This document shows positions 1 to 25,045 of a stretch of 64,000 nt of DNA, piece by piece. Below the pieces are notes generated by a model. That model was not told the DNA's origin. It saw only the letters and a program-made list of their open reading frames with translations, and did not search any database. The position numbers were made by a program, and so were the translations under genes. Positions within the stretch are counted from its first letter, which is position 1. Each line of letters starts with the position of its first letter. This DNA is from a virus: IMG/VR virus record IMGVR_UViG_3300008952_000006, positions 96,001 to 160,000 of that record, one strand, 5' to 3'.

Positions 1-3000
1 CAAGCATTGGCGAAAGCAGCATTTGTTGAAGTTGCGCCCAAGAAGGTTTTACGCCAGCACTCTCCATAGCTTTTAACTTATTGCCACTCTTATCGAGGAG
101 TTTTTTGGCCTCCACGCTCATGGCTTTAGATGCGGCAGTGTAGAGATCAACAAGCTTGGCGTCTCCCGCCTCCCTCGAAATCATGTTCAGGCCTACCTGT
201 TTTTGTATCACAGATTCTTGCTTACGAGCGACCGCCATATGCTTTTCTCGGATATCCCTTAGAGACTTGAAATCGTCAAGACCAAAGGAGAAACCAATAT
301 TGTATGCGTGACCAAACCCTAACTCTTTTATCTTATCAGCAGTATCCGCAAACTCTGCTGGTGTCTTCGTCGCGATGTCATGTAGTATATTTTGTAGTAG
401 TTTTTTATCCACAACAGCGGTTGGATCTGTCAGGTAGCGGTCTGACTGAACTTTCTTAGGTAGCTTGCTATTAAAAATAATACGGCCTGCGGTCGTTTTG
501 GACGCTCCGACCTGGACAACATCGCTCATGCTGATGTTTCCTTCTTTTGCGTCTTTAAGGGCATCTTTCGAGTTTCGGTATGACTTTTTCACATCCTTGC
601 CCCACTTAGTAAGCAGGTAGAGTCCAAGCTGTCCCTCCAGGGTAGGTTGGTACATTACCCGCCCTGTTGCGGGGTTAAACAAGTTCTTAGATGGCATCAT
701 CTTGTAAGACTCGTCTACTGCCTCCTGCGAAACCGGAACAAACACAGCCATAGTATCCCCGTCAAAATCAGCATTAAACCCACCCACCACAAGAGGGTGG
801 ATATGAATTGCTGACTCTTTATGGAGACGTGGCTTAAAAGCCATAATCCCAAACTTATGGAGGACGGGGTCTCTTTTGAAGAGAACAGGACGCTTACTGA
901 CTGCAACATCCAGCGCTTTGTTTGCTAGGGTGGTGTTCTTCTCCACCTCTTCCCGTGCCTTCAGAGGGGAGTACCCCATCTTCACAAGCTCTTTGACCAC
1001 GAAGGGCCGGTAAATCTTCATGGCCCCTTTTCTGGGTAGGCCCATCTCATCCAGGTGTAAGTTCATGTCAGGAACGATGACAGAGCGCATACTGATGTCT
1101 TGCCGTCTATCTACGAGCCTCTGTAGAAAGAAACTCTGCTTAGGGCTGGATCTCCCTGAGAGTATATGGAGTATGCCTGGGGGAGCGGGCTGCCCGTCAA
1201 CCGTGACGCTACCCTGGGTGGCTGTTTGAACCCCCATCAAGGCCTCTGTGGCCTCGTACAAGTCACTCCGCAAACCGGCCACCGCGCTCTCTGGAAGAAC
1301 TCCTTTGGCTTCATCAAGCTTCTTGTTTAGCAGGGCGATATCTCGGTAGAGCATGTTAACGCCGTCGATGTTTAGGTCCCCGCCCTCCATTGCCGTGATC
1401 GGCCTAAACAGGGGCGGTAGTACGGGCACGTTATCTATTACGTAAGCTTCCTCAGCGCTCAGCTTGTTTTTCTGTAGCATCAAGAGGTATTTAATCTTCT
1501 TGTTTACGCGGTCCAGGTCACTGCGCCGAGCTGTCTTAATCTGCTCTTTAGCGGCGGCCAGATCCCCTTCTATATCTACAGAAGACAACCTTAGAGCAAG
1601 GGCGGACGGTCCAGACGCAGTGTCTTCTGTGGCCTCAACCAGATTGCCCTCGGAGTCGAAGCCAAGCTTGCTTGCTATAATCGCGTCATACTCCTTGCCA
1701 GTCAGCCCTAAGAGAGACCGAATACCTTTTTCAAACACAGGGTTTGGTAGGGACGAGGCAAGCGCTATGTGGGACCAGTTTTTCCCCCCAGGCCCACCAG
1801 TGATATCCTCATCAAAAAGACCCCCCTTTTCAGGCTTTAGATCCTTTCCTCGGATAACGCGACTGCCATCCTTTATCTCACCGCTAGACATAGCCACAAT
1901 CTGCTTGTCTGTAAGAGGTGAAACAATGAGACCGTTTCCATCCTTCTCAACGTTCAACCCAAGAGCATTCATGTACGCTAGGAACTTCTCATAGGCAAAT
2001 GACGGCTTTGGCGACGGCAATATGGCACCAGTCTGGATCGCGGTCCAAACCTCGTCTTGGGCCTTGTCTCCCTTGTATGTAAGAGCATCTCTGATATTGG
2101 CCGTTGCGCCATGAGCAAGCATAGCGTAGAGGCCAAGCTCACCAAACCTTTGGGCCCCACCAGTTTTACCGCCGCTCTTAGGCACAAGATTGGCATCGTA
2201 GTCATAGCCATAACCATGAGACCTAGCGCTTAACTTCTTGTCCACTTGGTGCATCAGCTTAAGAAAGTACTGGTGACCAACCAAAACCGTGCCAAGACTT
2301 TTCCCTGTTTCGGGGTCAAAAAGTTCACGGGTCTCCGAGAGCCCCGCACCCTTCAGAGCAGCGTCTACCGCATCACGGTAACCCAACTCACGCTCATGCT
2401 CCTTAACCTCTACCTTCTTGGGGCCTGACTTTGTCTGTATGGTCCGAGTGTGTGCTTTAACACGGATTACCTTCTTTCGGTCATCTGACTGAAAGTTCTC
2501 AACCGCGTAGGGCTCACCGTTAGCAGCGGCAACATTCCCTAAAGCAGTCTCTAAAACTTGGCCTGGGTTGATCCGGCCAGGAACCCCAGAAGGGTTTAGG
2601 GCGATCTGGAGGGCGTTCCCATCAGAATCTTTGGGCATCTCCTCATCCGGTATTACAGCCGTGATGACCCCTTTATTCCCGTGGCGGCCAGATAATTTAT
2701 CACCAATGTCTGCGGGTTCTTCTGTCTTGACATGCACCAAGACCTCTCGCCCATTGCGAACGACGTCAGTAACCTCGCCACGATAGGGTTTATCCCAAAC
2801 AACTGACTTGTTCTTATAGGGACGCACCAATGACTTGTGTATGCCACGTAGAAGTAACTGTTCCTTGGAGGGCTCAACCTTCTGCAGGACTGTTGTGATT
2901 ACGTCCCCAGGGTTGACGATCTCACCCTTCTTGATGACTCCGTCAGCATCTAGCTTGGTGGCGTTTTCCTCTGAGATCGAACCTGGGTAATGCGCACGAA

Positions 3001-5029
3001 ACTTCTTAAGGCCCAGAAGCATGGTTTTGTCTACATAGGCGCGTTCTTTGTGCAGGTGGACACTTGTTAATTTCTCTGACGCAGACTCACTAATAACTAT
3101 ACCATCCTCAAACACCAGCCCCTTGTATGGTAAGTAGCCCACCCGCAAGTTCGTTCCCAAGGCCAAGGTTCCATTATTAGTGAAATTAGTATCAGCAATG
3201 ATTTGGCCCTCGGAAACCCTATCGCCCTTCTTAACTAAGGAGTTGCTGGTAATAAAGGCCTTCTTGTCATTAAGGGGGAAGTTATCGTATAGCTGCACGT
3301 CATGTTTCTTCCCGTCTGCGCTTTTTATGATGACCTTCGAGGAAGATACAGAAGACACAAAGCCGGAAACAGGTGATGAGTGCGACGTAAACCGACCCAC
3401 AATCTTCTCCCAAGTAGAGTAATCCTCATGCTTGTTACCAGACACAACCTGCACCAGTGGCTGCTCTGGGTTTTTTAAAGAGATAGACTGTGAAAGATGC
3501 CGAGTGGCCATGCCTGCCCGGTTTGCTTGATCCGAGGGTAAAAAAGGAACCAGATTAGCAGTAATAGAAAACATCTGCTTGGGTGACTCTAGTACATAGT
3601 CAACTTGGTCTGCCGCGACCTTGCTGGGGTCTTCACCGCCAGCAGGAATGACCACCACGTGATCGCTCTTCGGAGTGAGCGATTTGTTGGGGCCCTTTGA
3701 GTACTGATCCGAGAAGGCCACGTTCCCTACCGACAGCTCAGATGGGGACTTCTCGACGTATTTTCCCGCGTTAACATCGAATACCCTTATCCGTGGCGTT
3801 ACGCCCTTTTTACGGACCCCAAGGGAAAGGTGCCCACTAATGCCTGACCGTTTTCCTTCCGGGGTGTGTACTGGGTCGATAAACCCTAGAAAACTTGAGT
3901 CAATAAGCTTGGCCTCTTCCGAGATTGCTGCATCGCTCTGGATCCCCCCAGTACCCATAATGGTAGTTCGTAAGAAGCCGCCCATCATATCTACGGGGTT
4001 AACTTGGGATGTTTGTTGGGATAAGGACGTTGATGTAAAGAAAGCCTTGATGGGTACGTTAAAGATGTCGGGCGTCACAATGGCCCTGACGTTATCTTTA
4101 CGGTCCAGATTGTTCATCATCTTGTACGTGATTCTTCTCTTGGAATTCTGGATACGCTCAGGGATATGATTGTCAATTGACCAAAGCTCTTTAAATTGCA
4201 GCGAGTCGCGATTATCAACTTGAGCAGTGCCTTTGTTTATATCTACTAATTTCTGAGAAGATGCTAGAAGGGCCCCGCCTGTTACCGAGCTAAAGGCTTG
4301 GCCTAGCGTAACGGCAGTCGTGTCCTCTCGCAGACCCGTGTCCTTGAGCACCTCTTGTATGACGGGGGTTGCTTCCGCATCAGTTTTTACAGGCACGTTC
4401 CTGGCTAGGGCTCTGGATAGCTTAACAAGCTCGCCTCTTTTCTTTGCAGCCACAGCGCTCGTATACAGCTCTGGGCCCCAGGAAGACCGTATCGTATCGT
4501 CATCTACGCCCAGGGCCTGCAAGACTGGGAGGAGTTGGACATTTGTTGAGCCGTAAGACATCAAAAATCTTCGTTTGGTTGGGTCAAAACCAAGCCGGAA
4601 ACCGCGCCCTTTAGTTAAGTTGAACTGGGACTCGAGGTCACCGTTTGCCTTACGTCTGGCATAAACACCGGACTTCAAGCGCCACTGGTTGTCCGCTTGA
4701 TATTCTGTCCCGTCTATGATGTAGCTATATCTGCGTGTGATCTTTGGGAGGTTTAGTACCTTGAGTTTTTTATTGGAACTGACGACCTTCCCTGTCGCGT
4801 TGTCAACAAGAGAAAAATCACCAAAGATACCTTGCGCCCAGGTGCGGCCTCGGAGACGCGCCTTCTTCTGGCTTGCGATGTCGTCCTCATCCACAGGGTC
4901 ACCAACGTATATTTCCTTGGCCACAAGTGTGTGCTTCTTCCCTACCAAGGGAAAGAACCGTTTAATTTCTTCTATCGTCCCGTCTTCAAGGGTTTTCATC
5001 ACCCTCTGGGGATCGAGCACATTAGACAT
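1..5029 (-). CDS. rpoBC: Fused DNA-directed RNA polymerase beta-beta' subunit (partial, >=1676 aa, continues past left edge)
   Basis: Translated by hand in segments from ATG 5029 (SD GGAGGG upstream). All segments are in one frame, and the track lists no terminated long ORF in that frame. Beta motifs: YIIDGTEYQADNQW, FIDPVHTPEG, LVPFLPSDQANRAGM, GDKLSGRHGNKG, LNPSGVPGRINPGQ, GAQRFGELG. Beta' motifs follow: KPEKGGLFD, PVLPPLFRP, RDPVLH, and the catalytic FNADFDGD (NADFDGD at 755-775). Confidence 0.96.
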   Translation of the reverse strand, partial: MSNVLDPQRVMKTLEDGTIEEIKRFFPLVGKKHTLVAKEIYVGDPVDEDDIASQKKARLRGRTWAQGIFGDFSLVDNATGKVVSSNKKLKVLNLPKITRRYSYIIDGTEYQADNQWRLKSGVYARRKANGDLESQFNLTKGRGFRLGFDPTKRRFLMSYGSTNVQLLPVLQALGVDDDTIRSSWGPELYTSAVAAKKRGELVKLSRALARNVPVKTDAEATPVIQEVLKDTGLREDTTAVTLGQAFSSVTGGALLASSQKLVDINKGTAQVDNRDSLQFKELWSIDNHIPERIQNSKRRITYKMMNNLDRKDNVRAIVTPDIFNVPIKAFFTSTSLSQQTSQVNPVDMMGGFLRTTIMGTGGIQSDAAISEEAKLIDSSFLGFIDPVHTPEGKRSGISGHLSLGVRKKGVTPRIRVFDVNAGKYVEKSPSELSVGNVAFSDQYSKGPNKSLTPKSDHVVVIPAGGEDPSKVAADQVDYVLESPKQMFSITANLVPFLPSDQANRAGMATRHLSQSISLKNPEQPLVQVVSGNKHEDYSTWEKIVGRFTSHSSPVSGFVSSVSSSKVIIKSADGKKHDVQLYDNFPLNDKKAFITSNSLVKKGDRVSEGQIIADTNFTNNGTLALGTNLRVGYLPYKGLVFEDGIVISESASEKLTSVHLHKERAYVDKTMLLGLKKFRAHYPGSISEENATKLDADGVIKKGEIVNPGDVITTVLQKVEPSKEQLLLRGIHKSLVRPYKNKSVVWDKPYRGEVTDVVRNGREVLVHVKTEEPADIGDKLSGRHGNKGVITAVIPDEEMPKDSDGNALQIALNPSGVPGRINPGQVLETALGNVAAANGEPYAVENFQSDDRKKVIRVKAHTRTIQTKSGPKKVEVKEHERELGYRDAVDAALKGAGLSETRELFDPETGKSLGTVLVGHQYFLKLMHQVDKKLSARSHGYGYDYDANLVPKSGGKTGGAQRFGELGLYAMLAHGATANIRDALTYKGDKAQDEVWTAIQTGAILPSPKPSFAYEKFLAYMNALGLNVEKDGNGLIVSPLTDKQIVAMSSGEIKDGSRVIRGKDLKPEKGGLFDEDITGGPGGKNWSHIALASSLPNPVFEKGIRSLLGLTGKEYDAIIASKLGFDSEGNLVEATEDTASGPSALALRLSSVDIEGDLAAAKEQIKTARRSDLDRVNKKIKYLLMLQKNKLSAEEAYVIDNVPVLPPLFRPITAMEGGDLNIDGVNMLYRDIALLNKKLDEAKGVLPESAVAGLRSDLYEATEALMGVQTATQGSVTVDGQPAPPGILHILSGRSSPKQSFFLQRLVDRRQDISMRSVIVPDMNLHLDEMGLPRKGAMKIYRPFVVKELVKMGYSPLKAREEVEKNTTLANKALDVAVSKRPVLFKRDPVLHKFGIMAFKPRLHKESAIHIHPLVVGGFNADFDGDTMAVFVPVSQEAVDESYKMMPSKNLFNPATGRVMYQPTLEGQLGLYLLTKWGKDVKKSYRNSKDALKDAKEGNISMSDVVQVGASKTTAGRIIFNSKLPKKVQSDRYLTDPTAVVDKKLLQNILHDIATKTPAEFADTADKIKELGFGHAYNIGFSFGLDDFKSLRDIREKHMAVARKQESVIQKQVGLNMISREAGDAKLVDLYTAASKAMSVEAKKLLDKSGNKLKAMESAGVKPSWAQLQQMLLSPML

Positions 5030-5062
5030 CCGTCCCTCCGTGCTAACACGGTGCGTTAGTTA

Positions 5063-5070
5063 GGTATAAG
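5063..5070 (+). promoter_or_regulatory. Candidate phage promoter motif GGTATAAG (copy 1)
   Basis: The same motif precedes all three plus-strand transcription units (5063, 9076, 25038). Promoter function is inferred. Confidence 0.45.
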
Positions 5071-5074
5071 AACT

Positions 5075-5197
5075 ATGGGCAATATAGCCCTCATAAGAAA
5101 AGGAGTACTGTTGATGAGAGAAGCAAGCAAAACCACGCAAGCCTCGACAACCGAGGATCTGGCAGACGCAGTCGAAAAATCCCTGAGCGGTAAGTAA
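5075..5197 (+). CDS. Small hypothetical protein (40 aa; alternative start 5114 after AAGGAG)
   Basis: MGNIALIRKGVLLMREASK...KSLSGK*. Lies directly after the motif and ends 3 nt before the next ORF; below the ORF-track cutoff. Confidence 0.35.
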   Translation: MGNIALIRKGVLLMREASKTTQASTTEDLADAVEKSLSGK

Positions 5198-5200
5198 AAG

Positions 5201-5416
5201 TTGAAGACTGTAAAAAAGATCCAGTGCTTTATAAAGAGTGGTTGGTGCCGAACGCCAGCCAACTGTGGCGAATGCGAGTACTTTCTGGACCATAAAATAA
5301 ACCGTTGGGTTTGCGTCAAATGTCTTAAACATAACGATGCAACCTCCAGCTTTTTCCAGAAGGGGCGGTGTGACCGCTGCGAAAAGTCATCAGCGATATT
5401 GGTTTGTGTAGGTTAA
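5201..5416 (+). CDS. Small Cys-rich putative zinc-binding protein (71 aa)
   Basis: Three CxxC motifs (CGEC, CVKC, CDRC) plus further Cys. Fills the gap between RNAP and portal; its stop overlaps the portal stop (TTAA). Confidence 0.5.
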   Translation: MKTVKKIQCFIKSGWCRTPANCGECEYFLDHKINRWVCVKCLKHNDATSSFFQKGRCDRCEKSSAILVCVG

Positions 5417-7380
5417 ATCTGTGCACTACCGGGTCCTGATCTAGGTGGTAACTTGTCTGGTAGTGGTTGCATGGGAGCCATGCCCCCTCCAGACAAAGCG
5501 TTATTCACCAGCATATACAAATCCGGGTTCGCGGCACGTAACTGTGCCAGAACCCGGTACCTTTCCACTTCATTCATCTTTTTTAGCTCGGAGGTCATTT
5601 TGCGAGCCTGGGCAAAAAGATCAACCATGGGGCTCTGTGTGGCCTGGACCGGACTCTGCGCTACGCCTTGGACCACGCCCCCCGCTGCCTCTTGCCCCTG
5701 CGCCTGCTCTGGAGCAGGTTGTTGTTGTTGCTCTGCCCCAGCCTGCTGCTCTGCCCCAGCCTGTTGTTGATCGGGGGAGCCGCCTTGCTGTTCTGCCCCG
5801 GGCGGAGGGCCGTACTGTTGCTGCATTTTTGCTTGGTTTTCTTGTTGCATGTTCTGGGATTGGATCTGATACCGAGTCTGGATAAGCATGGCTTCGCCCT
5901 GCGCCTCTGTTTGCTTAATCTGCTGCTCGCGTTGGGTGAGGTTAAGTCGTTGGGATTCCTTGTTTATGAGATCCTGCTCAGTGTCAAAGTTGTAGTCCCT
6001 AGATTGCAAGAAGGTTCTACGACTAATCATCCCCGCGTTAGCAAGGTTCATATCAAAAGAGGCCCGCTGAATATCATCAGCCATCTTGAAGGGCTTGAAT
6101 TTTAAACCGATCTTAGGGAGATTCAAAAACTGAGAAACGCGGTCTCGGATAAACTCAACACACCGAAGCATGTCTTGCCTATTGCCCAGGAACTCGTTTT
6201 CCAGGGCACGCAAGTTTACCGAAGCGCCCGAGTACTGGGCCTCGCCATAAAAGAAGCCCGTAGGGACACCCATCCCCGCGATGATTTGGTCGGAGTAAAC
6301 CCGTAGCTCTTGGTGCAGCAGGAGACTCCTGCCTTGACCACCAATCATTTGGTACCCGATAGGGACGGGCATAACAGGGATATGGTTATTGTCTTGCCGC
6401 CAGCGCTTTATCTGATGCTGAACTTCCTTCTGCCAGTCCGCTAAGTTGATTTGGGCATAAGGATTATTACCATCAGTCGATACCTGCGGAAACATAACCC
6501 GCATAGGGACAATATGCTCCAGGGCCACAGCTTCCTGGGCTTTTCGTAGTATCTGTAGAAAGAAGATGTCCTTTAGAACCGGAAGGATAAGGGGTGCTCC
6601 CCAACCGCTATCGGAGGGCTCACGAGAAATAGACGGCCTGCGACTGTGGAAGATCTTGGAGCTGTCTAGAAGGACAGACCTTTTCTTCCGTAAGGAGTCA
6701 ATAAAAGCTTGGGGAATCGTCTCCAACACATCAGGCTTGCCGAGGGTGATGTCGTTCTTCAATGTCCGGGGCATTTTATAGTAATAGAGGTAACGGCCAG
6801 TTATCTCATTGTATTTTATAGTAATATGCTTTGGGTTCCAGCGGATAAGGCGTATTTTAACAGCTGCCTTAACGGGCTCATCAACCACTTTCGCGGGTCC
6901 GTGGTGGTTGCATTGGGGGCAGTCAAAATGGAACTGGTAACCCTTCCACTTGTAGCCAGCTTTTTTAGCGGGCGCGCTGTGCCCGCAAGAGGTGCAGTGA
7001 AGAACTTTTGTGAACGGAAACGCCACAGAGACAAAAGAATTTCCATATGTATATCGATCAAGATTGACTTCAATCAAAAATGACCGCAGCAGAAACTGCT
7101 TCTCAAACAAGTCCTTATACGCCCCCACTAGACCAACATTATCATCTTCGTAAACCAAGTCCGTGATCGGATAAGTTGCTAATTTCTGGGTTACTGCATT
7201 TATAAGCGGATTGGTAAGCTGGTAGTAATGGCACCAGTCAAAGGTATCTTTGATGGTTTTAGGTATGTAATTTTTGGCAACGTCAAAGAACGGGCTAGGG
7301 TAAAAGGACTCCGGGCGGCCAACAGACTTTGCTCGAGAACTTGCGGAAGATAGGCCATACCTCTGTGATCCGTAATCCAT
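5413..7380 (-). CDS. Probable phage portal protein with zinc-ribbon insertion and Q/A/G/P-rich C-terminal tail
   Basis: Portal-like order of motifs: NPLINAVTQKLATYPI, LDRYTYGNSFV, IRLIRWNP, IFHSR..GWGAPLILPVL, DQIIAGMGVP..F..G, GMISRRT. Insert CTSC...CPQC. Confidence 0.7.
   Translation of the reverse strand: MDYGSQRYGLSSASSRAKSVGRPESFYPSPFFDVAKNYIPKTIKDTFDWCHYYQLTNPLINAVTQKLATYPITDLVYEDDNVGLVGAYKDLFEKQFLLRSFLIEVNLDRYTYGNSFVSVAFPFTKVLHCTSCGHSAPAKKAGYKWKGYQFHFDCPQCNHHGPAKVVDEPVKAAVKIRLIRWNPKHITIKYNEITGRYLYYYKMPRTLKNDITLGKPDVLETIPQAFIDSLRKKRSVLLDSSKIFHSRRPSISREPSDSGWGAPLILPVLKDIFFLQILRKAQEAVALEHIVPMRVMFPQVSTDGNNPYAQINLADWQKEVQHQIKRWRQDNNHIPVMPVPIGYQMIGGQGRSLLLHQELRVYSDQIIAGMGVPTGFFYGEAQYSGASVNLRALENEFLGNRQDMLRCVEFIRDRVSQFLNLPKIGLKFKPFKMADDIQRASFDMNLANAGMISRRTFLQSRDYNFDTEQDLINKESQRLNLTQREQQIKQTEAQGEAMLIQTRYQIQSQNMQQENQAKMQQQYGPPPGAEQQGGSPDQQQAGAEQQAGAEQQQQPAPEQAQGQEAAGGVVQGVAQSPVQATQSPMVDLFAQARKMTSELKKMNEVERYRVLAQLRAANPDLYMLVNNALSGGGMAPMQPLPDKLPPRSGPGSAQI
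5730..5765. repeat. 18-bp tandem duplication inside portal tail (encodes QQAGAE twice)
   Basis: gctctgccccagcctgct followed by gctctgccccagcctgtt. Confidence 0.75.
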
Positions 7381-7391
7381 CTATACACCCC

Positions 7392-8063
7392 TCATGGAAG
7401 CAGCTTCTTAATTTGTACAAGAAGAGATCCAGAGGCCGCTTCTAGGAAATCTTTAACAGAGGTAGACTTCATAATTTGAACGTCGTCCTCATTTTTTCCA
7501 TTAAACATGGGCTTCCTTTTCATGTCTAATGCTCTTTTTACTTTATCTTGCTGGGAAGAATTAATAAATTCTACAAGATATGGGTTACTTGGTTCAAGCG
7601 ATCCCGGCCCGTAAGAGAGGCCGTAGTCTAGCATAACGGCAGCAACGTACTTGTAAACCTCCGAAGAAATTTCTGCATCTTCACGCAATTGGGACATTAT
7701 ATCTAGGGCTAAGGCTGCTCTATGGGGGGTAGGTCTTTGTACGATATCGAACTTGGGAGTTAATCCCACAAACCCCAGGACCACTTTTTCAAAGATCTCC
7801 CAGCGATTATACGGGGAGTCTGAGACATGGCAGGTCCTGATAGCCTGTATTTTGTTCCGGTTTACCTCAGAAATGGTTGTTCCCCAGGACCGTCCAATCT
7901 CGAGCCAGCACGTTTCCGGTTCCCAGCCAAGATATTCGGACCCAAACTCCCGAAGGAGCATTAGGTTGAGAACAAGTGGATGAGTCTCGCGATTCGTAAA
8001 AGCTTGCCTGGGAGTTTGCGGCCCCGTGCTGGCAACAAGATGTGGATTAGTAGTTATGGTCAT
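7392..8063 (-). CDS. Hypothetical protein (223 aa), head-assembly neighbourhood
   Basis: Long ORF tightly coupled to its neighbours; no recognised motif. Confidence 0.8.
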   Translation of the reverse strand: MTITTNPHLVASTGPQTPRQAFTNRETHPLVLNLMLLREFGSEYLGWEPETCWLEIGRSWGTTISEVNRNKIQAIRTCHVSDSPYNRWEIFEKVVLGFVGLTPKFDIVQRPTPHRAALALDIMSQLREDAEISSEVYKYVAAVMLDYGLSYGPGSLEPSNPYLVEFINSSQQDKVKRALDMKRKPMFNGKNEDDVQIMKSTSVKDFLEAASGSLLVQIKKLLP

Positions 8064-9045
8064 CTATCATCCGCGCAATCGCTTGCTTGTGTGTTACAGG
8101 CAAGCTGGAGAGCACAGATGCAGGATCTGCTGAGAATTGCTCTGAAAAGCCCTCCCCAAACGAATCTGTTAATCGCTCAGAGCCCCCATTCTGGGTCCAG
8201 TGAGCCACGGTGTCGGCTGTGTATTCGCGGCCATTGATTTCAAAAGGCTGGTCCGCAGACGCATTTTTTTCGACCGATGTCCCAAATACTGTCTGGTAAG
8301 GGTCTGGTATTACCTTATTATATAGGCCAGTAATGCCGTGGCGGATGTCAAAGTCAGCGATATCTTCGGCCAACTGGTCAACGTCTGCAGACGCGGACTT
8401 AACCAGAAGAGCCTCAAGCTCAGCAATTCCATCGGCCTCCATAACCGCTAGTTTCCTGGTATCGATACCTAAAGAAAAGTCACTCCCAAGCTCAGCGCGG
8501 GAGTAGTCTGCCATATCATCCGAAAAAAGGTCGTTAAAAACCCCGGCCTCTTTTACCTGCAGCATCAACCGTCGCTTACCCCTTGGGCTACACGCGGTGA
8601 AGGCATCTTTAACAACCTCGTACTGGTCGTTTTCGGTCACACCAAAAAGCTCTTCCAAGCTTCGGTCCTGAGCCTCTCCGCTATAGCCAAGATCTAAGGC
8701 TGCGGTTTTGCACAGAGTTTCTGGTGGAGTAAACCCAAAAGCGGTCAGAGCGGTGCTCAGTTTCTGGGCCGCCTCTTTTTGAAGCTCCTCGGGCAGGGCG
8801 TCTCCGTGAGCCGAAAAGTACATCGCGGAAGCAATAGTGTTACCAGCATCGACAATGGGTAGCTTATGGGCTTTTCCTCGCCCCGTGTCCACCACTAGAG
8901 CGTAATCCCCGTCTTTAGGGGTCGTGTTCTGGGATAGATCAGCGGCCACCTTAACAATAGGGGGAATTCCTTTTTCGGAAAACTCTTTTCGGAGGAGGAG
9001 GCCTCCATCATCGTAGTGATCTAGCACTGCTGGTAATTCTTTCAT
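8047..9045 (-). CDS. Acidic hypothetical protein rich in K-x-A motifs (putative scaffold/head-processing substrate)
   Basis: ATG 9045 follows GGGAGAG (the track starts at 9057). 9 of its 18 lysines are in K-x-A context. Confidence 0.8.
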   Translation of the reverse strand: MKELPAVLDHYDDGGLLLRKEFSEKGIPPIVKVAADLSQNTTPKDGDYALVVDTGRGKAHKLPIVDAGNTIASAMYFSAHGDALPEELQKEAAQKLSTALTAFGFTPPETLCKTAALDLGYSGEAQDRSLEELFGVTENDQYEVVKDAFTACSPRGKRRLMLQVKEAGVFNDLFSDDMADYSRAELGSDFSLGIDTRKLAVMEADGIAELEALLVKSASADVDQLAEDIADFDIRHGITGLYNKVIPDPYQTVFGTSVEKNASADQPFEINGREYTADTVAHWTQNGGSERLTDSFGEGFSEQFSADPASVLSSLPVTHKQAIARMIDDHNY

Positions 9046-9075
9046 GTTCTCTCCCACAAGGGCTTGGATGTTTTT

Positions 9076-9882: not shown

Positions 9883-11286
9883 ATGCTTTATCTCCCCGAA
9901 AAAGACAGCGGAGAACTTATAATAGATGAAGCCTTCTCTTCTGCAAGTATGTGGGTACCAAACTCAGCAGTAAAAAATAAAGAGATGTTTCTGAGGGCAG
10001 CGAGAATCCGCACGGAGAACTCGAGAACAGGCGAAGTGAAAACAATCTCCCTGGCGCACAGGGAGATGTACCACCTAGTAGTGGCTAGACACCTATTCTC
10101 TGAGGAGGAATGGGAGCAGCGGCTAGGTAACTGGACGATCCCGGCGCTAGAGCTATGTTGGGAAAGCGTTGATTTTGGGTCCAAAATAACCCCGAGGGAT
10201 GCTGCGCAAAAAGAAGCCTGGGAGGCATTTGCAGCAGCAGACCACGGAGTATTAAATCTGGCCTGCGGGAAGGGCAAAACAGTTCTGGCCCTCAATAAAA
10301 TAGCAGATCGCGGAGTCCCCGCTATAGTAATTGTGAATAACGCGGGACTTATGGAGCAGTGGAAGGACCGTGCTAGTGAATTTTTGCAGCTACGTGAAGA
10401 AGACATTGGTATTGTCCAGGGCCCTAAAGCAGAGTGGGACAAGCCTCTTGTATTAGCAATGATACACTCGCTGGCAAACCACGCAAGTCGTGGGCTCGAT
10501 TTAGACATACGGACCAGATTTGGCACCGTAATCTTTGATGAGGTTCACCATCTTAGCGCAGCCAAATTCAGCCTAACCGCTGATTTATTTCTTGGTAACA
10601 GATTTGGGCTGACGGCCACGCCGCGCAGGGAGGACGGGCTCGAGGATGTTTACTACGCACATATTGGTGGAATCTTCCACTCAGACCTTGTGGGGGACTT
10701 GTCCGCAAAAATCTTCTTTGTAAAACTCGTAACAGATACACCTGTAAACGAGTCCATCCTAAGGGATAGGACCGGTGAGTTTTCCGCACCAAAAATGTAC
10801 CACTACCTTGCAATGCAGGAGGACCGTAATCGTAAGATACTAAAACTTGTAACAAACGCGCTCAGCAAAGGCAGGAAGATCCTTGCCCTGGGGCACTCTA
10901 AAGCGCACCCTGAACTGCTTAACAAGATGTTTCTAGACAATCCGCGTATGAAAAGATATACAAGCGGGGTCGTCACGGGGGCTACTGCAGGAGAGGACCG
11001 CACACGTATTATTGAAGAGTCTGACGTGACTTTCGCCACATTCCAGATCGCAAAAGAAGGCCTGGATGTTGCCGAGCTAGACACGTTAATATTCTGCACT
11101 CCTTTTAAGTCGTGGGGTGCGTTCCAACAAGGCAAAGGCCGGGTAGAACGACAGGCTAAAAATAAAAAAGAACCAATTGTTTTGGTTGTTGATGACATAT
11201 ACCTAGGCCCATCGAATAGTATGTGCCGCGCTCTTAGAAGGAAAATCGTGGGTCATGGACTATCATTTAAAACCGTCGAAGGATGA
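9883..11286 (+). CDS. Superfamily 2 DNA helicase (XPB/Ssl2/UvsW-like)
   Basis: Motif I ACGKGKT, II DEVH, III TATP, V EGLDV, VI QGKGRVER. Confidence 0.92.
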   Translation: MLYLPEKDSGELIIDEAFSSASMWVPNSAVKNKEMFLRAARIRTENSRTGEVKTISLAHREMYHLVVARHLFSEEEWEQRLGNWTIPALELCWESVDFGSKITPRDAAQKEAWEAFAAADHGVLNLACGKGKTVLALNKIADRGVPAIVIVNNAGLMEQWKDRASEFLQLREEDIGIVQGPKAEWDKPLVLAMIHSLANHASRGLDLDIRTRFGTVIFDEVHHLSAAKFSLTADLFLGNRFGLTATPRREDGLEDVYYAHIGGIFHSDLVGDLSAKIFFVKLVTDTPVNESILRDRTGEFSAPKMYHYLAMQEDRNRKILKLVTNALSKGRKILALGHSKAHPELLNKMFLDNPRMKRYTSGVVTGATAGEDRTRIIEESDVTFATFQIAKEGLDVAELDTLIFCTPFKSWGAFQQGKGRVERQAKNKKEPIVLVVDDIYLGPSNSMCRALRRKIVGHGLSFKTVEG

Positions 11287-11920
11287 CCTGAAATCCTTCC
11301 TATATACTTTCAGAGACTGCGCAGAATGCGGGCTCCATAAGAATAGAAAAACCCCCGTATCCGGCAGGGGCAGTGTAGACGCTTCGGTGGTTATACTCCT
11401 AGACCGAGTAAGTGCCGGGGCGGGCTATAGCGGTGATATTATGTCTGGTGGGGAGGGGAAAACACTCCAACGAGTGCTTAAGTTTGTTGCCGAGTATTAC
11501 CCAGTAATAAGGGATAACTTCCTATGGGTCACTCCCGTAACCATTTGTCCAACAAGGAGAGGCGGTAAACAGGAGATGCTCCCCGCCCCCTCAGCCAAAG
11601 AACAGGCGGCATGTTCCCCCCGCCTTTATGGGGAGATCCACCGGATACAACCAGAGATTATAGTGGCTTGTGGCGCATCTGCCTACAAAGCCCTAACCCC
11701 CGCCAGAAGCGCTGCACACGCGGACACTATTGGCAGGGTTATAGACGGGTATGTGCAGGGGAGCGTCGGAGCTTACCCAATACCTACAATGGTCACGTAC
11801 TCGATGAACCAGCTGTACCGAGACCCCACACAAACTAAGCGGGGTATTTGGAATAAGACAATTGGTCACTTTAAACAGGCGGTTAGCATCGCCACAATAT
11901 TAGCAGAAAAAAGGAGGTAG
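11255..11920 (+). CDS. Uracil-DNA glycosylase family 4-like protein, catalytic motifs degenerate
   Basis: CAECGL..RKTPVSGRGSVDASVVI, TICP, EQAAC.PRL..EI..IQPEIIVACG match the UDG-F4 scaffold. GEAPG is replaced by LDRVS and HP by TYSM. Confidence 0.75.
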   Translation: MDYHLKPSKDDLKSFLYTFRDCAECGLHKNRKTPVSGRGSVDASVVILLDRVSAGAGYSGDIMSGGEGKTLQRVLKFVAEYYPVIRDNFLWVTPVTICPTRRGGKQEMLPAPSAKEQAACSPRLYGEIHRIQPEIIVACGASAYKALTPARSAAHADTIGRVIDGYVQGSVGAYPIPTMVTYSMNQLYRDPTQTKRGIWNKTIGHFKQAVSIATILAEKRR

Positions 11921-11921
11921 C

Positions 11922-12353
11922 ATGGGCTACGAATCTAAATCAGAAGAAGCGCGAAAAGCAGTCAGAGACTTCGAAGTAGCTAGGGAAGACATCAAGGAGT
12001 TCTTCAGAGAGCACCCTGAGTTTATGGATAACTTCATACCAATGGTTGAGCGGTATAACAAACTTCTGACCGAAGCAAAGAACCAAGTCAGAGGTTTGGA
12101 CGGGGATGACAAAATCTCAGTAGGACCGTTCACGCGCACCGCCAGACCCAAGAGCACCACATACGATGCAACAAAGGTGAACCCTGAAGTCCTCACTATG
12201 GAGGGCGTTGTTAAGAAAATCGACGGGGCCAGGATAAACGACCTCATTGTATCTGGTAAGATATCGCATTCCGATGTCGAAGATGGGCAGTCGGTAAGCT
12301 ACGGGACGGCTAGAGTAAACGCCCCCGGATTAATTGTAATAAAAGTAGTTTAA
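11922..12353 (+). CDS. Hypothetical protein (143 aa)
   Basis: Strong SD AGGAGG; helical N-terminus. Confidence 0.8.
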   Translation: MGYESKSEEARKAVRDFEVAREDIKEFFREHPEFMDNFIPMVERYNKLLTEAKNQVRGLDGDDKISVGPFTRTARPKSTTYDATKVNPEVLTMEGVVKKIDGARINDLIVSGKISHSDVEDGQSVSYGTARVNAPGLIVIKVV

Positions 12354-12360
12354 CGCCATG

Positions 12361-12408
12361 TTTGGTGGTGGACCAAAGACAGGGGAGGCTTACGCCTCCC
12401 TTCGTCTT
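12361..12408 (+). promoter_or_regulatory. Intergenic hairpin pair (possible attenuator or processing site)
   Basis: TTTGGT/ACCAAA stem and AAGAC-AGGGGAGGC-ttac-GCCTCCCTT-c-GTCTT stem; no long U tract. Confidence 0.45.
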
Positions 12409-12462
12409 ACTACAGTTAAAGCTTGGGGATACAAGGCAAACCGACAAACTAGGAGTGAAAGA

Positions 12463-12786
12463 ATGGAACAGCAAATACCAATTGACTCTCTATGGACAGA
12501 TGAGAGTCTACCGGAGGCATCGGTCACAGCCAGTGTGGCCACAAAAGTTTCAGACGCCGTTTATTACGGTTCTGGTGAGTGGGACAAAATACCGTTCCAC
12601 GTTGAGATCTTCTCAAGTGTTACGCTGAAATGTAGCCAAGAGGAGGGGTCGATCCGAAAGGCGCACAACTGTGCTTACGACTTGGCCTGGGAAGCGTCGA
12701 GAGAGCACATTATAAAAGCAGTTGCTGGACACATGATTGACATTAAGGAGCGTTTGTGTTCTGGATCTTTCCAGGAGGAAGACTAA
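12463..12786 (+). CDS. Hypothetical protein (107 aa)
   Basis: ATG 12463 after AGGAG preferred over the track start 12358, which overlaps the hairpins. Confidence 0.75.
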   Translation: MEQQIPIDSLWTDESLPEASVTASVATKVSDAVYYGSGEWDKIPFHVEIFSSVTLKCSQEEGSIRKAHNCAYDLAWEASREHIIKAVAGHMIDIKERLCSGSFQEED

Positions 12787-12787
12787 G

Positions 12788-13084
12788 ATGGCAGACATAA
12801 TGAAATGCTCAATAGACTCCCTCCACGCGCATAACATTGAAATAATCAACCCGGAGACGCAGAAAGAGTTCTACGTCATTTCGGCAAAGATTGGTTATGG
12901 CGTCGGAGGGAAGGCCGTTGGCGAAGTGGTCGTGAACGGTCTTGAGATGCACAAAGAAGTACAAGAGGCCACTAAGCTTCTAATAGAGGCTATAGAGAAG
13001 GCGTTTGCGCCTACCATCGGGGTACTGTCTGACGACGAGAAGACCCTGAAAGGGGAGTTGCCTTCAGGGCTAATCAATATCTAA
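12788..13084 (+). CDS. Hypothetical protein (98 aa)
   Basis: ATG 12788 after GGAGG, directly after the previous stop. Confidence 0.75.
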   Translation: MADIMKCSIDSLHAHNIEIINPETQKEFYVISAKIGYGVGGKAVGEVVVNGLEMHKEVQEATKLLIEAIEKAFAPTIGVLSDDEKTLKGELPSGLINI

Positions 13085-13125
13085 ATAACAGCTAACATTT
13101 ATGCAAGAACAAGGAGGAGCACGGA

Positions 13126-14556
13126 ATGGCAAACTGGGAGCTACAGTTAATAAGTGCAATCGTCGGAGCGGAAGAGCCCGGTGATATTTTTGAGACCGCA
13201 CAAAGGGAGGGAATAAACTTCCGAATATTCGGTGGCATGGAGGCAAAGAACCTCTGGGCAACCATTGACGCGCACTATAGGAGACCGCAAAACTTCGGGC
13301 ACGTTCCAAGCGAACAAACACTGCTGGAACAATTTCCCTCTCTAGACCTGCCAGCGCCAGTAGAGAACTTTCAAGACCTATGCGAGAAGGTAAAAGATAG
13401 CCATCTCAGGAGGGAGGCCGAAAGCGCTGTGAGTAAGTATCTGGCCGATGTCGAGCCAAGCAACGGATTGACGATCATCGCACATCTGCACCGTAAAATA
13501 GGGGAGCTTCTAGAAACAAACTCTGCGGACAACGATGTATGCTTTTCTCAGGTAGCGCTACAGGAATGCGCTGCTGAGCTTCGGAGAATCGAAGATACAG
13601 ATGGTATGACTGGCTACCCGTGGCCGTGGCCTAGATTGAACATTGCAACCCAGGGCATACAGCCCGGTGACTTCATCATGGTTTGGGCCCTGCCGAAGTC
13701 CATGAAAACATGGTTTGGTTTGGTGGTAGCGGCTCATATGTTAGCTACGGGGAGGCGTGTTCTTATCTACTCAAAGGAGATGACATGGCCCGCCGTTAGA
13801 CGTCGATTGGCTTGCATCTTGGCTCGAGTAGACTACACGCGCCTAAAAGAAGGAAACCTATCAACTGCTGAAGAAACCCAGTACCTCCAAAAGCTAGAGG
13901 AGATCTGCGACCCAGAATTTCCTGGTGACGTTTGGTTTACTTCGGCTGACTGTGCGGATGGGAGTCCTGGGGGACCAGACGAGATACGGAGAAAGATCGA
14001 TATCTTCAGGCCGCATTTCGTGTTGCTTGACTCAGCCTACATGCTGGAGCTACCGGGTTCTGGGAGCAGCGCTTTGGACTGGAAGCAACTGTCGCTTGTA
14101 AATAGGCGTATTAAACAGATAGCCAAAACAACAGGTATACCAATTATGGCGATCCTCCAAGAAAATGAGAGGAGTGCGCTTAAGTATGCAAAGTCACGTG
14201 GGACGGCATCATTAGCCATGAACACGGGCGCTGTTATGGACTGCGATGTTGGTATACGTCTAGTCTATCATAAAAATCGTAGAGAGCTGTCTATCCACCT
14301 CCCTGCTGCCAGGGAGACAACCTGTGAGGGCTTCACAATTAACGCCTTGGCGGCAGAGAATTTCTCCTACGCTCACGATGGACTTCATTCCTTATCGGAT
14401 ATTTACGATGAAGAAGCTGCTGAATCCGCCAATCTGCCAGAGCAGATGAACGGTCAAGGAGAAGAGGTTCGCGCAGTCGTAAGCCCTTTAATGGTTAGCA
14501 GCAGAGAGACCCCACAGGTCCCTCGCGATGAAATTGATGATGATTTAGGGATCTAA
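13126..14556 (+). CDS. dnaB: DnaB-like (SF4) replicative helicase
   Basis: GYPWPWPRLN..TQGIQPGDFIMVWALPKSMKT (H1), YSKEM (H1a), LLDSAY (H2), IKQIAK...PIMAILQ (H3), DCD (H4); SD AGGAGG. Confidence 0.88.
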   Translation: MANWELQLISAIVGAEEPGDIFETAQREGINFRIFGGMEAKNLWATIDAHYRRPQNFGHVPSEQTLLEQFPSLDLPAPVENFQDLCEKVKDSHLRREAESAVSKYLADVEPSNGLTIIAHLHRKIGELLETNSADNDVCFSQVALQECAAELRRIEDTDGMTGYPWPWPRLNIATQGIQPGDFIMVWALPKSMKTWFGLVVAAHMLATGRRVLIYSKEMTWPAVRRRLACILARVDYTRLKEGNLSTAEETQYLQKLEEICDPEFPGDVWFTSADCADGSPGGPDEIRRKIDIFRPHFVLLDSAYMLELPGSGSSALDWKQLSLVNRRIKQIAKTTGIPIMAILQENERSALKYAKSRGTASLAMNTGAVMDCDVGIRLVYHKNRRELSIHLPAARETTCEGFTINALAAENFSYAHDGLHSLSDIYDEEAAESANLPEQMNGQGEEVRAVVSPLMVSSRETPQVPRDEIDDDLGI

Positions 14557-14557
14557 A

Positions 14558-15553
14558 TTGGAGCAGAACGACTTACTGTCTGTGCTGCGACCATACATAT
14601 CCATAGCAGAGCATCAGGCTTCATCATCGTATAATGTAGCCGCTTACTGCCCCTTCCATAAAGGGGGTAGAGAATCTAAACCCTCATTTTATATCTATGT
14701 TGGTCCGCCAACGAGTGGCAAGAGGCCGGGAGCGGCCTTCTGCCACACCTGTAATGAGGGTTGGAGTTTTACGGGGCTACTTAAAAAGCTCGCAGTCCCC
14801 AACAAGATAATAGACAGCATAAGACAGCATGTTGACTATTCCGCACCGGAACCAAAAACACCACTTAAAATGGTGTTCTCGTGGGACGTATTACCGGAAG
14901 CTATTCTCGGTACGTTTTCTTACCTGCCAAAGAAGCTTATAGATGATGGGTTCACCACCGATACTCTCCTGAATTATGAGATAGGATTTGACCGTTCGCG
15001 GAAGAGAATCATATTCCCAATCCGGAATCATCACGGTGAACTCGTCGCTATCAGCGGGCGGACAATTTCTGGTCGGTGGCCGAGGTATAAGATCTATAAG
15101 AGCGAATTGGAGGAAGTTATTAACAACTATTCCTTTGATAAGAAAACTGTACTTTGGGGGTTAGAGAAATTCTACGAAACACGCATGTATACAGATACAA
15201 AGATTGACACACCTGTGGTAGTGTGTGAAGGTTTCAAGGCCGCGCTCTGGGTTGTGCAAAGTGGATACCCACACACAGTCGCACTGTTGGGCTCTTACCT
15301 GAGCAAGGAGCAGGAGATGTTGCTCTCTAGGGTTACAAACAACGTGGTGTTGTTCCTAGATAACGACGAGGCTGGCTGCAAGGCCACAGAGAAAATAGCG
15401 GATAACCAACTAGGAGGTGTCAGCATAAAGATAGCAAAATATAAGGACAACGATAAAAATAAATCGCCGGATGATTTGAATGAGCTTCAAGTAAAAGAAG
15501 CCATAACATCCGCAATAACACTAATAAACTGGAGGAGATCCTGTGAGTATTGA
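14558..15553 (+). CDS. dnaG: DnaG-like primase (CHC2 zinc finger + TOPRIM)
   Basis: CPFH...CHTC, RIIFPIRN.HGELVAISGR, VCEG, FLDNDEAG, KSPDD. Confidence 0.92.
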   Translation: MEQNDLLSVLRPYISIAEHQASSSYNVAAYCPFHKGGRESKPSFYIYVGPPTSGKRPGAAFCHTCNEGWSFTGLLKKLAVPNKIIDSIRQHVDYSAPEPKTPLKMVFSWDVLPEAILGTFSYLPKKLIDDGFTTDTLLNYEIGFDRSRKRIIFPIRNHHGELVAISGRTISGRWPRYKIYKSELEEVINNYSFDKKTVLWGLEKFYETRMYTDTKIDTPVVVCEGFKAALWVVQSGYPHTVALLGSYLSKEQEMLLSRVTNNVVLFLDNDEAGCKATEKIADNQLGGVSIKIAKYKDNDKNKSPDDLNELQVKEAITSAITLINWRRSCEY

Positions 15554-16673
15554 TTACGAAGAGTTTAAAAAATTACAAGCATCAAAACGAAGAAACCTAA
15601 TGAGTAAAGTGGGCAAAACCGGAAAGTCATCCGGTGGCGGCCAAGGCGGTGGGAGCAAGTACGAAACCCCACCATGGAAGCTCAGGCGAGAATATTTCAA
15701 GCCATCGATAGAGCAACCGACCAAGATTAGGATTATCCCTCAAAGCAATGGTGAGATTTGGTACCCATTTATGAGTAAGTGGGTTTCAACGGCCAAGGGA
15801 AAGCGACAAATTATCTCAAACGCCTGGAACGGGGAACGAGATATGCCCTGCGTTCTCTACTACTACGCCCTTGAGGAATCTAAAGCGGACTTTCTCGCGT
15901 CGGAGCAAGTGGCAACAACCGTGTTGGTCTTAGAGGATTTTTACAAAGTTCCCAAGGTGTCAGCCAAGGGTACCGAGTATCACCTTTTCGAGCGCAGCCT
16001 CGGGGTTGATAAACATGGTCGTAGCTTGGACCACGTGTCAAGACAAGACCAGGAAAAAGTATTCGGTCGAAAGCTGCACTGGTCCATGTGGCCTACGCAG
16101 CAAAGAAACCTGATGACCACCCTCCAAGGGCTCACTGAGAAGTGTGCTCATTGTGGTGAAGGTGAGATTAGCGTCTACGCGTACCAATGTACGGACTGTG
16201 GCGAAATGATCGCCAATCATAAGGAAGAGCCAATCGACCGGAACTCCGAGCAAGTACTACAGAATGAGTCTGTGGCCTGCCCGGGTTGTGACACTCGTAT
16301 GATCGCTAAGCAAATATATGAGTGTGTTAAGCAGGACGGTTACAAAGGTAACTGGGTGCATGGTTGCGACAACCCCTTGAAGGTGTCGCTGAATGAGCCC
16401 TTAGACCTTGTAATACGTGCTGTGCCCGCCGGTAAGTCAACCGCCATAGAGGTGCTCAGTTTCGCACCGGCTGACATGCAAGCCACCGAGTCACTGCCTA
16501 ACTTCTTGACGGCTCCATTCGAATTCGATCAATTTTTCGGAAAGATGGACCTAGAAGAACAAGCAACTTCGATGGGTGTAGAGATGCCATTTGGCGCAGG
16601 GGATCAGCAGATCATTGATGACTTCTTCACGGCTAGTCCGAACGACGAAGACGAAGATAGCATCCCCTTTTAG
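15543..16673 (+). CDS. Probable single-stranded DNA-binding protein (gp32-like) with zinc ribbons
   Basis: Located between primase and polymerase; KIRIIP segment; acidic C-terminal tail DEDEDSIPF typical of SSBs; CAHC, CTDC, CPGC. Confidence 0.65.
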   Translation: MSIDYEEFKKLQASKRRNLMSKVGKTGKSSGGGQGGGSKYETPPWKLRREYFKPSIEQPTKIRIIPQSNGEIWYPFMSKWVSTAKGKRQIISNAWNGERDMPCVLYYYALEESKADFLASEQVATTVLVLEDFYKVPKVSAKGTEYHLFERSLGVDKHGRSLDHVSRQDQEKVFGRKLHWSMWPTQQRNLMTTLQGLTEKCAHCGEGEISVYAYQCTDCGEMIANHKEEPIDRNSEQVLQNESVACPGCDTRMIAKQIYECVKQDGYKGNWVHGCDNPLKVSLNEPLDLVIRAVPAGKSTAIEVLSFAPADMQATESLPNFLTAPFEFDQFFGKMDLEEQATSMGVEMPFGAGDQQIIDDFFTASPNDEDEDSIPF

Positions 16674-16686
16674 ATAGCTTGAACCC

Positions 16687-16822
16687 TTAGGTGAGGGGGA
16701 AGCGCCAGTCTCCGGTCCCAGGATTTCCTGCGAGGTATGCGAGCCTCGACTTTTACTGGGAAAGGTAAAAATTAACTCTATCTAGTCAGCAGAGTTGATG
16801 GGCAGGCGCTCCCCCCACCTAA
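16687..16822 (+). ncRNA. Candidate structured RNA element (closing stem plus four internal hairpins) upstream of the DNA polymerase gene
   Basis: 16687-16706 pairs with 16805-16822 (18 bp, two bulged A). Internal hairpins at 16719-30, 16731-48, 16751-70, 16772-98. Strand and function are inferred. Confidence 0.6.
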
Positions 16823-16840
16823 TTTATTACAAAAGGAGAG

Positions 16841-18733: not shown

Positions 18734-18804
18734 TAAAAGGAATGCCTTTACCCAGAAAGCGCTGACCTTTATAAAAAGCGGACACACTAATAAAGGGGAG
18801 CCAT

Positions 18805-18981
18805 ATGGAGGACACAGAAGAAGCGATGCCAGATAGTTGCTACAGGGAATTAGACGAGAACGAAGAAAAGGAGTTCAGGAAATGGGCCAGGGACAACTAT
18901 ATTTCAGGAGACCCAGTAAAAGCCGTTTGGCACCCAGTGGTGCGAAACGAGTGCTCTATTATAGATAATGAATCGACGTAA
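18805..18981 (+). CDS. Small phage hypothetical protein (58 aa)
   Basis: Below the track cutoff. SD GGGGAG; MEDTEEAMPDSCYRELDENEEKEFRKWARDNY...WHPVVRNEC...*; overlaps the next start. Confidence 0.7.
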   Translation: MEDTEEAMPDSCYRELDENEEKEFRKWARDNYISGDPVKAVWHPVVRNECSIIDNEST

Positions 18982-19234
18982 ACCATGGTTTTTCTACGTA
19001 GTAGAATGCTCTGATCAGTCTCTCTATGCCGGTATTACTACTAATATAGAGAGACGGGTCAGCGAGCATAACAAGAGTCCGCGCGGGGCCAAGTATACAA
19101 GAAGCCGCAGACCTGTCCACCTAGTGATGTCCAGAAAATTCCCAAGTAAATCGGGAGCCCTAAAACATGAATACAAATTCAAGCGGCTTACTAAAAAAGG
19201 TAAATTGGCCGAAATTCGGAGACAGCATGGATGA
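18968..19234 (+). CDS. Stand-alone GIY-YIG nuclease (YhbQ/UPF0213-like)
   Basis: FFYVVECSDQSLYAGITTNIERRVSEHN...GAKYTRSRRP...ALKHEYKFKRL. Confidence 0.9.
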   Translation: MNRRKPWFFYVVECSDQSLYAGITTNIERRVSEHNKSPRGAKYTRSRRPVHLVMSRKFPSKSGALKHEYKFKRLTKKGKLAEIRRQHG

Positions 19235-25003: not shown

Positions 25004-25037
25004 ACCCCCAAAAAGTGCAAAAATAGACCCCTTTTTA

Positions 25038-25045
25038 GGGATAAG
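25038..25045 (+). promoter_or_regulatory. Candidate phage promoter motif GGGATAAG (copy 3)
   Basis: TTTTTAGGGATAAGAA just after the terminator and upstream of the 71-aa gene. Confidence 0.5.

Follow-up and report, generated by a model that had tools for sequence, protein, structure and literature searches.

A fused β–β′ RNA polymerase of bacterial type in a lineage of large phages, and its possible role as a virion-carried early polymerase

How does a large phage come to carry both large subunits of a bacterial-type RNA polymerase (RNAP) on a single polypeptide, and what might such an enzyme be for? The question is raised by a 64,000-nucleotide stretch of viral DNA (positions 96,001 to 160,000 of IMG/VR record IMGVR_UViG_3300008952_000006), referred to here as the window, in which a minus-strand frame running from position 5029 to position 2 stays open for 1,676 codons, with no stop before the window edge. 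Since the frame leaves the window in this way, it is flagged as open at its 3′ end and is absent from an open reading frame (ORF) list that omits open ends, an absence that the preliminary description had noticed. The whole record (G000), a single contig (C1) of 173,034 bp with direct terminal repeats and a CheckV completeness of 100%, is a circular 173-kb marine phage genome. Leftward extension within it recovers the complete gene (C1:94754–101029, minus strand), which encodes 2,091 residues comprising β, a short linker and the entire β′; the window holds residues 1–1676 (window 2–5029), and 1,247 further bases lie to its left. The phage-encoded, single-chain β–β′ polymerase of bacterial type that had been proposed is thus borne out by both the open frame and the complete gene.

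The β moiety (residues 1–1028; window 1946–5029, minus strand, as are all RNAP features below) was delimited by phmmer and by alignment to Escherichia coli. A cyanobacterial RpoB matches residues 14–1026 (E = 7e-88), and among solved structures the best relatives of the chain are RpoB and RpoC of bacteria. A Pfam search places both domain sets on the one chain, with Rpb2_3/6/7 at residues 340–997, Rpb1_1/2/3 at 1154–1586 and Rpb1_5 in the portion left of the window. The β/β′ junction lies at window 1925–1948, with the end of β at 1946; the peptide previously quoted for it corresponds to residues ~1013–1053 (window ~1870–1993). That β runs in frame into β′ stands, but the extent then given for β′ was partial: the chain also has the bridge helix, the trigger loop, a second zinc site and the C-terminus.

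Two genes joined in assembly, or bacterial DNA joined to a phage contig, could in principle mimic such a fusion. A search with the fused protein gave 270 matches; among the 265 best, 243 carry β, the N-terminal part of β′ and its C-terminal part on one chain, 14 carry β and the N-terminal part of β′, and eight carry β only, most of them apparently fragments. In all 243 full fusions, 7–10 residues separate the ends of the β and β′ profiles. When only the β half was used as query, the best 150 matches (clusters at 50% identity) were mostly proteins of at least 2,000 residues. In four metagenome runs of marine origin, drawn from two studies, one of which (P1) is possibly the same source as the assembly, no indel and no joint is seen over the gene. 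The junction is spanned, without indels, by one metagenome contig (run X2, 1572–2173); run X1 has no cover at 1601–1800, and the gene as a whole is spanned by no single metagenome contig. Variants listed within the ORF are synonymous in 29 of 31 cases. With gene order conserved and GC content flat across the region, we regard a chimera as having practically no chance of being correct: the fusion is no artefact, given a metagenome contig across the junction and 243 independent full fusions, among the 265 best homologues, that are joined at the same place. The single-chain design recurs in hundreds of related phages.

Whether the chain is an enzyme was judged by alignment against E. coli, taking residue roles from established knowledge of the E. 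coli RNAP and assessing invariance over 68 aligned family members. The signature of two-barrel RNAPs is present and invariant across all 68: the catalytic lysines K778 and K786 (E. coli β K1065 and K1073; window 2672–2698), R1386 (E. coli R425) and D1421, D1423 and D1425. The last four lie in the β′ catalytic barrel (window 755–874), the aspartates within the NADFDGD motif (residues 1419–1425; window 755–775), which is intact, as had been reported. The bridge helix and trigger loop align to E. coli β′ 770–805 and 925–940; in the latter, Q1845 and H1852 are retained and R933 is replaced by lysine, the catalytic set being invariant or nearly so in the 68 members. The clamp helices are present, and the β flap-tip helix (residues 721–736; window 2822–2869), with a predicted contact to σ region 4, is retained. 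The chain is almost certainly an active two-barrel DNA-dependent RNAP.

Other parts depart from the bacterial pattern. The β′ N-terminal zinc-binding domain (E. coli β′ ~64–100) is replaced by a short glycine-rich loop (window 1772–1813); none of 243 homologues has a cysteine cluster at this site, but the domain is retained in bacteria, in mReC and in YerA41. In the equivalent of the rifampicin pocket (E. coli β 505–538; window 3941–4042), D516, H526 and S531, known resistance positions, are replaced by serine, glycine and threonine, so that the phage RNAP is predicted to be rifampicin-insensitive. A 33-residue β-hairpin insertion (residues 852–884; window 2378–2476) is absent in most relatives. 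An AlphaFold model of residues 550–1700 is confident (predicted local distance difference test (pLDDT) 89.7; predicted template modelling score 0.82), its junction is ordered (block means 85–94), and its best Foldseek matches are bacterial β′ chains, at a root mean square deviation of 3–4 Å. The enzyme had also been called streamlined, which holds to a modest degree, but most of the segments missing relative to E. coli are lineage-specific inserts; the fused chain of 2,091 residues compares with about 2,260–2,440 for β plus β′ in Patescibacteria and about 1,890–1,970 in mReC.

The RNAP gene belongs to a conserved head block. Directly upstream is a 655-residue ORF (window 5413–7380, minus strand) that matches the portal protein gp204 of Salmonella phage Arash (E = 6e-94), in agreement with the earlier placement of the gene beside the portal; a portal homologue lies upstream in 52 of the 67 related loci that have enough upstream flank. 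On the downstream side, three conserved unassigned genes are followed by the terminase, again in an order conserved in related loci, and the position of RNAP between portal and a terminase, protease, capsid and sheath block is common to Arash and most of 80 related loci. G000 and Arash share homologous terminase, portal, protease, capsid and sheath genes and more, and G000 is therefore an Arash-type myovirus. It has homologues of Arash gp206, gp216, gp10 and gp217, one RNAP copy and, in our search, no tRNA genes. Within a large phage lineage, the RNAP is a core gene passed on by vertical inheritance. 'Alteromonadaceae bacterium' labels on close homologues, and relatives in Leptolyngbyaceae and Bacteroidales metagenome-assembled genomes, were rejected as evidence of host, being binned phage contigs.

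The nearest described enzymes are those of Arash (gp206, gp216 and σ factor gp10; OQ632216.1; PMC10585845) and of Vibrio phages D69, D148 and D181, which fall in the same clade as the fused RNAP (support 100). Arash and D69 share with it the β–β′ junction, the zinc-domain deletion, a low cysteine content, a portal gene directly upstream and a homologous σ factor, at 31% RNAP identity. They differ in that Arash gp206 has 1,525 residues and the C-terminal half of β′ is a separate 606-residue protein, gp216, with a like arrangement in D69, whereas G000 encodes one chain. This split form is a minority, seen in 10 of 78 IMG/VR loci, the remainder reading as one frame up to the contig ends, and it makes up one clade in the trees. 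The Arash paper names gp206 and gp216 simply β and β′ and leaves the fusion unremarked (PMC10585845). A literature search, beyond the reach of which most subscription papers lie, found no paper describing the β–β′ fusion family.

Other phage RNAPs resemble the fused enzyme less. The mReC phages (PMC7481178) are likewise tailed and encode readily alignable cell-type β and β′ that branch outside Bacteria, but as separate genes: all 47 published mReC rows examined have two ORFs, and 0 of 80 mReC-type loci, six of them corresponding to published mReC contigs, are fused. Their enzymes keep the zinc domain and are cysteine-rich, their terminase is of the PF03237 family rather than PF05876 as in G000, and a Gp23-type capsid (PF07068) occurs in four of six mReC-type records and in 0 of 11 of the Arash/D69-type lineage (G000 and 10 relatives). 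The phiKZ/AR9 RNAPs also lack α and ω, and one of their two enzymes is in the virion; unlike that of G000, they are split into 4–5 chains, have no recognisable σ and number two per genome (PMC7598289). They are also far more diverged, with best PHROG matches at E = 1e-28 or weaker compared with 1e-86 for bacterial-like ones. The crAss-like virion RNAP and YonO, as cited in PMC7481178, carry both barrels on one chain, as in G000, but cannot be aligned to cellular β/β′ profiles, whereas the G000 enzyme aligns over its full length and retains the σ-docking surfaces. With bacterial RNAP it shares domain order, catalytic residues, flap tip, clamp helices and trigger loop, and the likeness would extend to the holoenzyme, through the use of a σ70-family factor with a candidate two-box promoter; it differs in having no α or ω gene that we could find, no β′ N-terminal zinc domain, a changed rifampicin pocket and an independent fusion, and in not nesting within Bacteria. 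The phage RNAP would work like a bacterial holoenzyme; it belongs neither to the bacterial RNAPs nor to mReC.

Six cultured phages with a cell-type β′ (MN988525.1 of the RHph_Y65/TM30 group, MW073017.1 (Va2), MG592415.1, MH719082.1 (IME392), LC554890.1 (RP13) and PP763253.1) have no β that matches a YerA41 β query and do not appear among the matches listed for the fused RNAP; they possibly have β′ only, or a very diverged β. Locus searches with RHph_Y65 β′ and with YerA41/Carin-5 β found nothing. Separately, in a Dehalococcoidia metagenome-assembled genome (G002:C8:1317320–1320817, L041), the normal rpoBC is accompanied by an additional, diverged rpoB and by a compact, separately encoded β′ (1,155 residues).

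Where does the enzyme come from? Trees were built from 1,344–1,634 β and β′ columns, with 20–59 bacterial enzymes (including 18 natural fusions; Deinococcota, Thermotogota, Aquificota and Campylobacterota not sampled by name), archaea, YerA41/Carin-5 and mReC, represented with both subunits by only one of its two paralogue types; supports are approximate likelihood ratio (SH-aLRT) or FastTree values. In four trees the fused enzymes group with those of Arash type in a single clade (support 100), which lies outside monophyletic Bacteria (97–100). Natural RpoBC fusions occur in Helicobacter and Wolbachia, and the 18 sampled are scattered inside Bacteria, with other junctions; the phage fusion is therefore independent. 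The preliminary description had proposed a host-derived RNAP captured by a large phage. Recent acquisition of an rpoBC from a bacterium, possibly one already fused, with later streamlining, would fit with the closest solved relatives being bacterial, and without archaea the phage clade indeed attaches among Patescibacteria branches, a placement flagged by the tree software as a meeting of long branches. Such a capture is nonetheless very improbable. Identity to bacterial enzymes is 26–31%, compared with 36–81% inside the phage family; Bacteria are monophyletic without the phage clade; the bacterial fusions are scattered and keep other junctions; and approximately unbiased (AU) tests, in which long branches are involved, reject a sister relation to Patescibacteria (p = 0.0001) and to one sampled cyanobacterium (p = 0.026). 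The proposed capture is not supported as an event that was recent or peculiar to this genome, and the gene is neither chimeric nor nested in a bacterial clade. Since the trees place the clade outside all sampled Bacteria and the AU tests reject these sisters, host capture would be at most a very old event; the enzyme may have its distant origin in a bacterial or proto-bacterial one.

The phage clade and mReC are two separate clades, each with support 100, and appear as sisters at SH-aLRT 96–99, with a risk of long-branch attraction. An AU test of the phage clade with Bacteria, excluding mReC, gave p = 0.023; because this value is subject to the same long-branch pull, we regard sisterhood with mReC as not demonstrated. 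Supports are low for either the full fusion or the Arash-type split as the ancestral state.

The gene for a σ70-type factor lies just right of the window (C1:160264–161187, minus strand), within the virion module. A Sigma70_r2 profile search of G000 was blank, and the factor was located only via Arash gp10, of which it is a homologue (E = 4e-22); Sigma70_r3 (PF04539) scores above cut-off, its best PDB matches are σ factors, and Foldseek supports the fold. It is present in 18 of 23 relatives, including 9 of 9 near-complete ones. In a predicted complex with RNAP residues 619–1349, σ region 2 (residues 51–67) docks on the clamp helices (RNAP 1210–1260) and σ region 4 (225–236) on the flap tip, with a score of 0.72 compared with 0.01 for the best of three controls; the mark applied to this score is reached by 58 of 80 solved pairs and 2 of 110 mismatched pairs. 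Runs share at least 83% of contacts, and the partner pLDDT is at least 77. Because similar holoenzymes have been solved and the score may be recall, we read the docking as likeness and not as binding. The RNAP very probably works with the phage σ.

No α (PF01000, PF01193) or ω (PF01192) was found in G000 by profile search, and no α (PF01000) scored above cut-off in 23 relatives; the control genomes were positive in 14 of 14 cases. The fused chain might then borrow the α dimer (and ω) of the host for assembly, or use an unrecognisable phage substitute. Its sequence and fold are near those of bacterial β and β′, it has no large new domain able to replace α, and conserved neighbours without assigned function are present, all of which would suit borrowing or a substitute; ESM Atlas searches with the ORFs at window 7392–8063 and 8047–9057 gave no named family. 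On the other side, the α-contact motif DGRTG is DPETG here and DPxTG throughout the family, and the hosts that the relatives infect, or from which they derive, differ widely. The phiKZ/AR9 enzymes show, moreover, that α can be lost (PMC7598289). We consider borrowing or a substitute unlikely, and take it as likely that the fused chain needs no host α.

Which genes would such a holoenzyme read? The two-box motif GCAAA-N15/16-GGNATAAG has eight strict intergenic copies in G000, all on the plus strand among small accessory and replication genes and most of them 50–540 bases ahead of the next called ORF. It occurred in none of 30 order-3 Markov simulations; its spacer peaks at 15–16, all other spacers from 5 to 30 giving one match overall. 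Eight relatives hold 3–10 copies of the relaxed motif (reversed control, 0–1), but it is not enriched in mReC-type and YerA41 records, which hold 0–3. The window contains a strict copy, GCAAA-N16-GGNATAAG, at 25017–25045 and a loose one in the replication module at 11830–11857 (both plus strand). The motif's non-σ70 form, strand bias and co-occurrence lead us to infer that it is read by the phage holoenzyme, of which it is likely to be the promoter. A further candidate box, TTATTAC, seemed enriched but was discarded, its spacing to the −10 box not being fixed. A degenerate copy of the motif (window 5042–5070, plus strand) runs away from the RNAP gene into the portal gene's 3′ end, antisense to the portal–RNAP operon; behind it lie two small plus-strand ORFs, of 40 residues (5075–5197) and 71 residues (5201–5416), the latter cysteine-rich. 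Speculatively, motif and ORFs (5042–5416) could dampen late-operon expression early in infection.

When would the enzyme act? We favour, with moderate confidence, a virion-carried and probably α-free holoenzyme for early genes, the single RNAP of the Arash/D69-type myovirus lineage. The RNAP would be produced late from the head operon, packed in the particle along with σ and an SNF2 ATPase, and ejected with the DNA. The ejected chain would refold without the α platform, because the covalent link would substitute for part of the assembly step. Plus-strand early and replication genes would then be transcribed from GCAAA-N15/16-GGNATAAG, independently of host RNAP and probably of rifampicin. Carriage in the virion, taken by itself, is probable, a view that draws on the Arash virion proteomics, gene position and cysteine loss. 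In the Arash paper, gp206 has the most spectra of the particle proteins (3,516), and gp216, σ gp10 and helicase gp217 are also detected (PMC10585845). The G000 RNAP has only four cysteines in 2,091 residues, all ligands of the second zinc site; the family median is four, compared with 29–38 in mReC and 11–37 in bacteria. The σ homologues are cysteine-free in 17 of 18 cases, and SNF2 is cysteine-free. Within G000, cysteine content is 0.19% in RNAP and 0% in σ and SNF2, compared with 2.0% in plus-strand proteins. In N4-like phages, cysteine loss marks ejected proteins (PMC11445570).

Several observations weigh against this reading. Minus-strand (late) proteins are generally cysteine-poor (0.55%, compared with 0.19% in RNAP). 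The Arash particles came from a sucrose-gradient preparation in which ribonucleotide reductase, ligase and primase were present too, and the authors of the paper allow for carry-over (PMC10585845). Motif enrichment is missing in Arash (one copy), D69 (none) and three distant members. Arash has a second σ, gp196, no homologue of which was found in G000, although one of the searches for it had no positive control; with no second σ found for late genes, this reading leaves transcription of the late operon unexplained. A diverged α substitute would escape Pfam, and several conserved neighbours have no assigned function. Some of these points would suit the same enzyme in a non-virion role, in which host RNAP starts infection and the phage RNAP and σ act only later in the infected cell. 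The Arash proteome may include carry-over, and the phage has a single RNAP, unlike phiKZ/AR9 with two (PMC7598289). Moreover, GGTATAAG is one base off the host −10 consensus, TATAAT, so host σ70 might read some copies. The RNAP gene, however, belongs to the head operon, and no copy of the motif lies upstream on its own strand; RNAP, σ and SNF2 have all lost cysteines; gp206 tops the Arash particle proteins by spectra, and gp196 is not among the listed rows of the virion table. We therefore hold a purely intracellular role to be improbable, slightly more so than the borrowing of α, and retain the virion-carried early polymerase as the preferred reading.

Whether an enzyme that keeps a bacterial appearance and the use of σ can do without the α assembly platform is a question for which the family offers a natural test, one that the highly diverged, σ-less phiKZ/AR9 enzymes cannot provide cleanly. 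A polymerase of one chain, used with a 240-residue σ and a defined two-box promoter, would make an orthogonal transcription system that is compact, and would serve as a simple structural model. The RNAP tree gains a large, deep branch next to mReC. In cultured, testable phages, two proteins acquire a new annotation as β–β′ fusions: Arash gp206 and the 'hypothetical protein' of Vibrio D69. More tentatively, and at somewhat less than even chances, the enzymes may form a third, unrecognised cell-type RNAP lineage in tailed phages: an α- and ω-free, two-protein holoenzyme (β–β′ chain and σ), injected from the virion and descended from an enzyme that parted from the others before the bacterial phyla diversified. 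If true, it would be the smallest σ-dependent transcription system known, and testable in cultured Arash.

Some family members show further peculiarities. In many (P0030, P0039, P0055, P0121–P0123 and others), the RNAP contains at least one LAGLIDADG-domain intein. In L146 (IMGVR_UViG_3300000172_000001, 10001–15967), the fused RNAP is a 1,988-codon frame interrupted only by four in-frame TGA codons, and TGA is therefore probably read as an amino acid in that member.

Elsewhere in the window, a replication module (9883–21282, plus strand) encodes a superfamily 2 helicase, a uracil-DNA glycosylase (UDG)-like protein, DnaB, primase, family A DNA polymerase and RecA. Four very large ORFs (2,560, 1,202, 2,161 and 2,311 residues) occupy 25380–50767 on the minus strand; the 2,311-residue ORF resembles Arash gp13, and a PHROG search with two of the four gave no match. 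Outside the window, a ThiF/E1-like gene (PF00899) stands among unassigned ORFs at C1:52225–55896 (L006:13225–16896), its neighbours having no Pfam match; the cluster could be a ubiquitin-like conjugation module. A Ro60/TROVE-vWA protein (C1:13618–15258) follows a motif copy after a 440-base gap. Finally, small ORFs at C1:20–8518 and 170608–172928 (minus strand) share a near-identical N-terminus (MNALEKYAAK-like), and many virion-module proteins carry K-x-A motifs; these shared features are possibly a head-targeting or protease signal.

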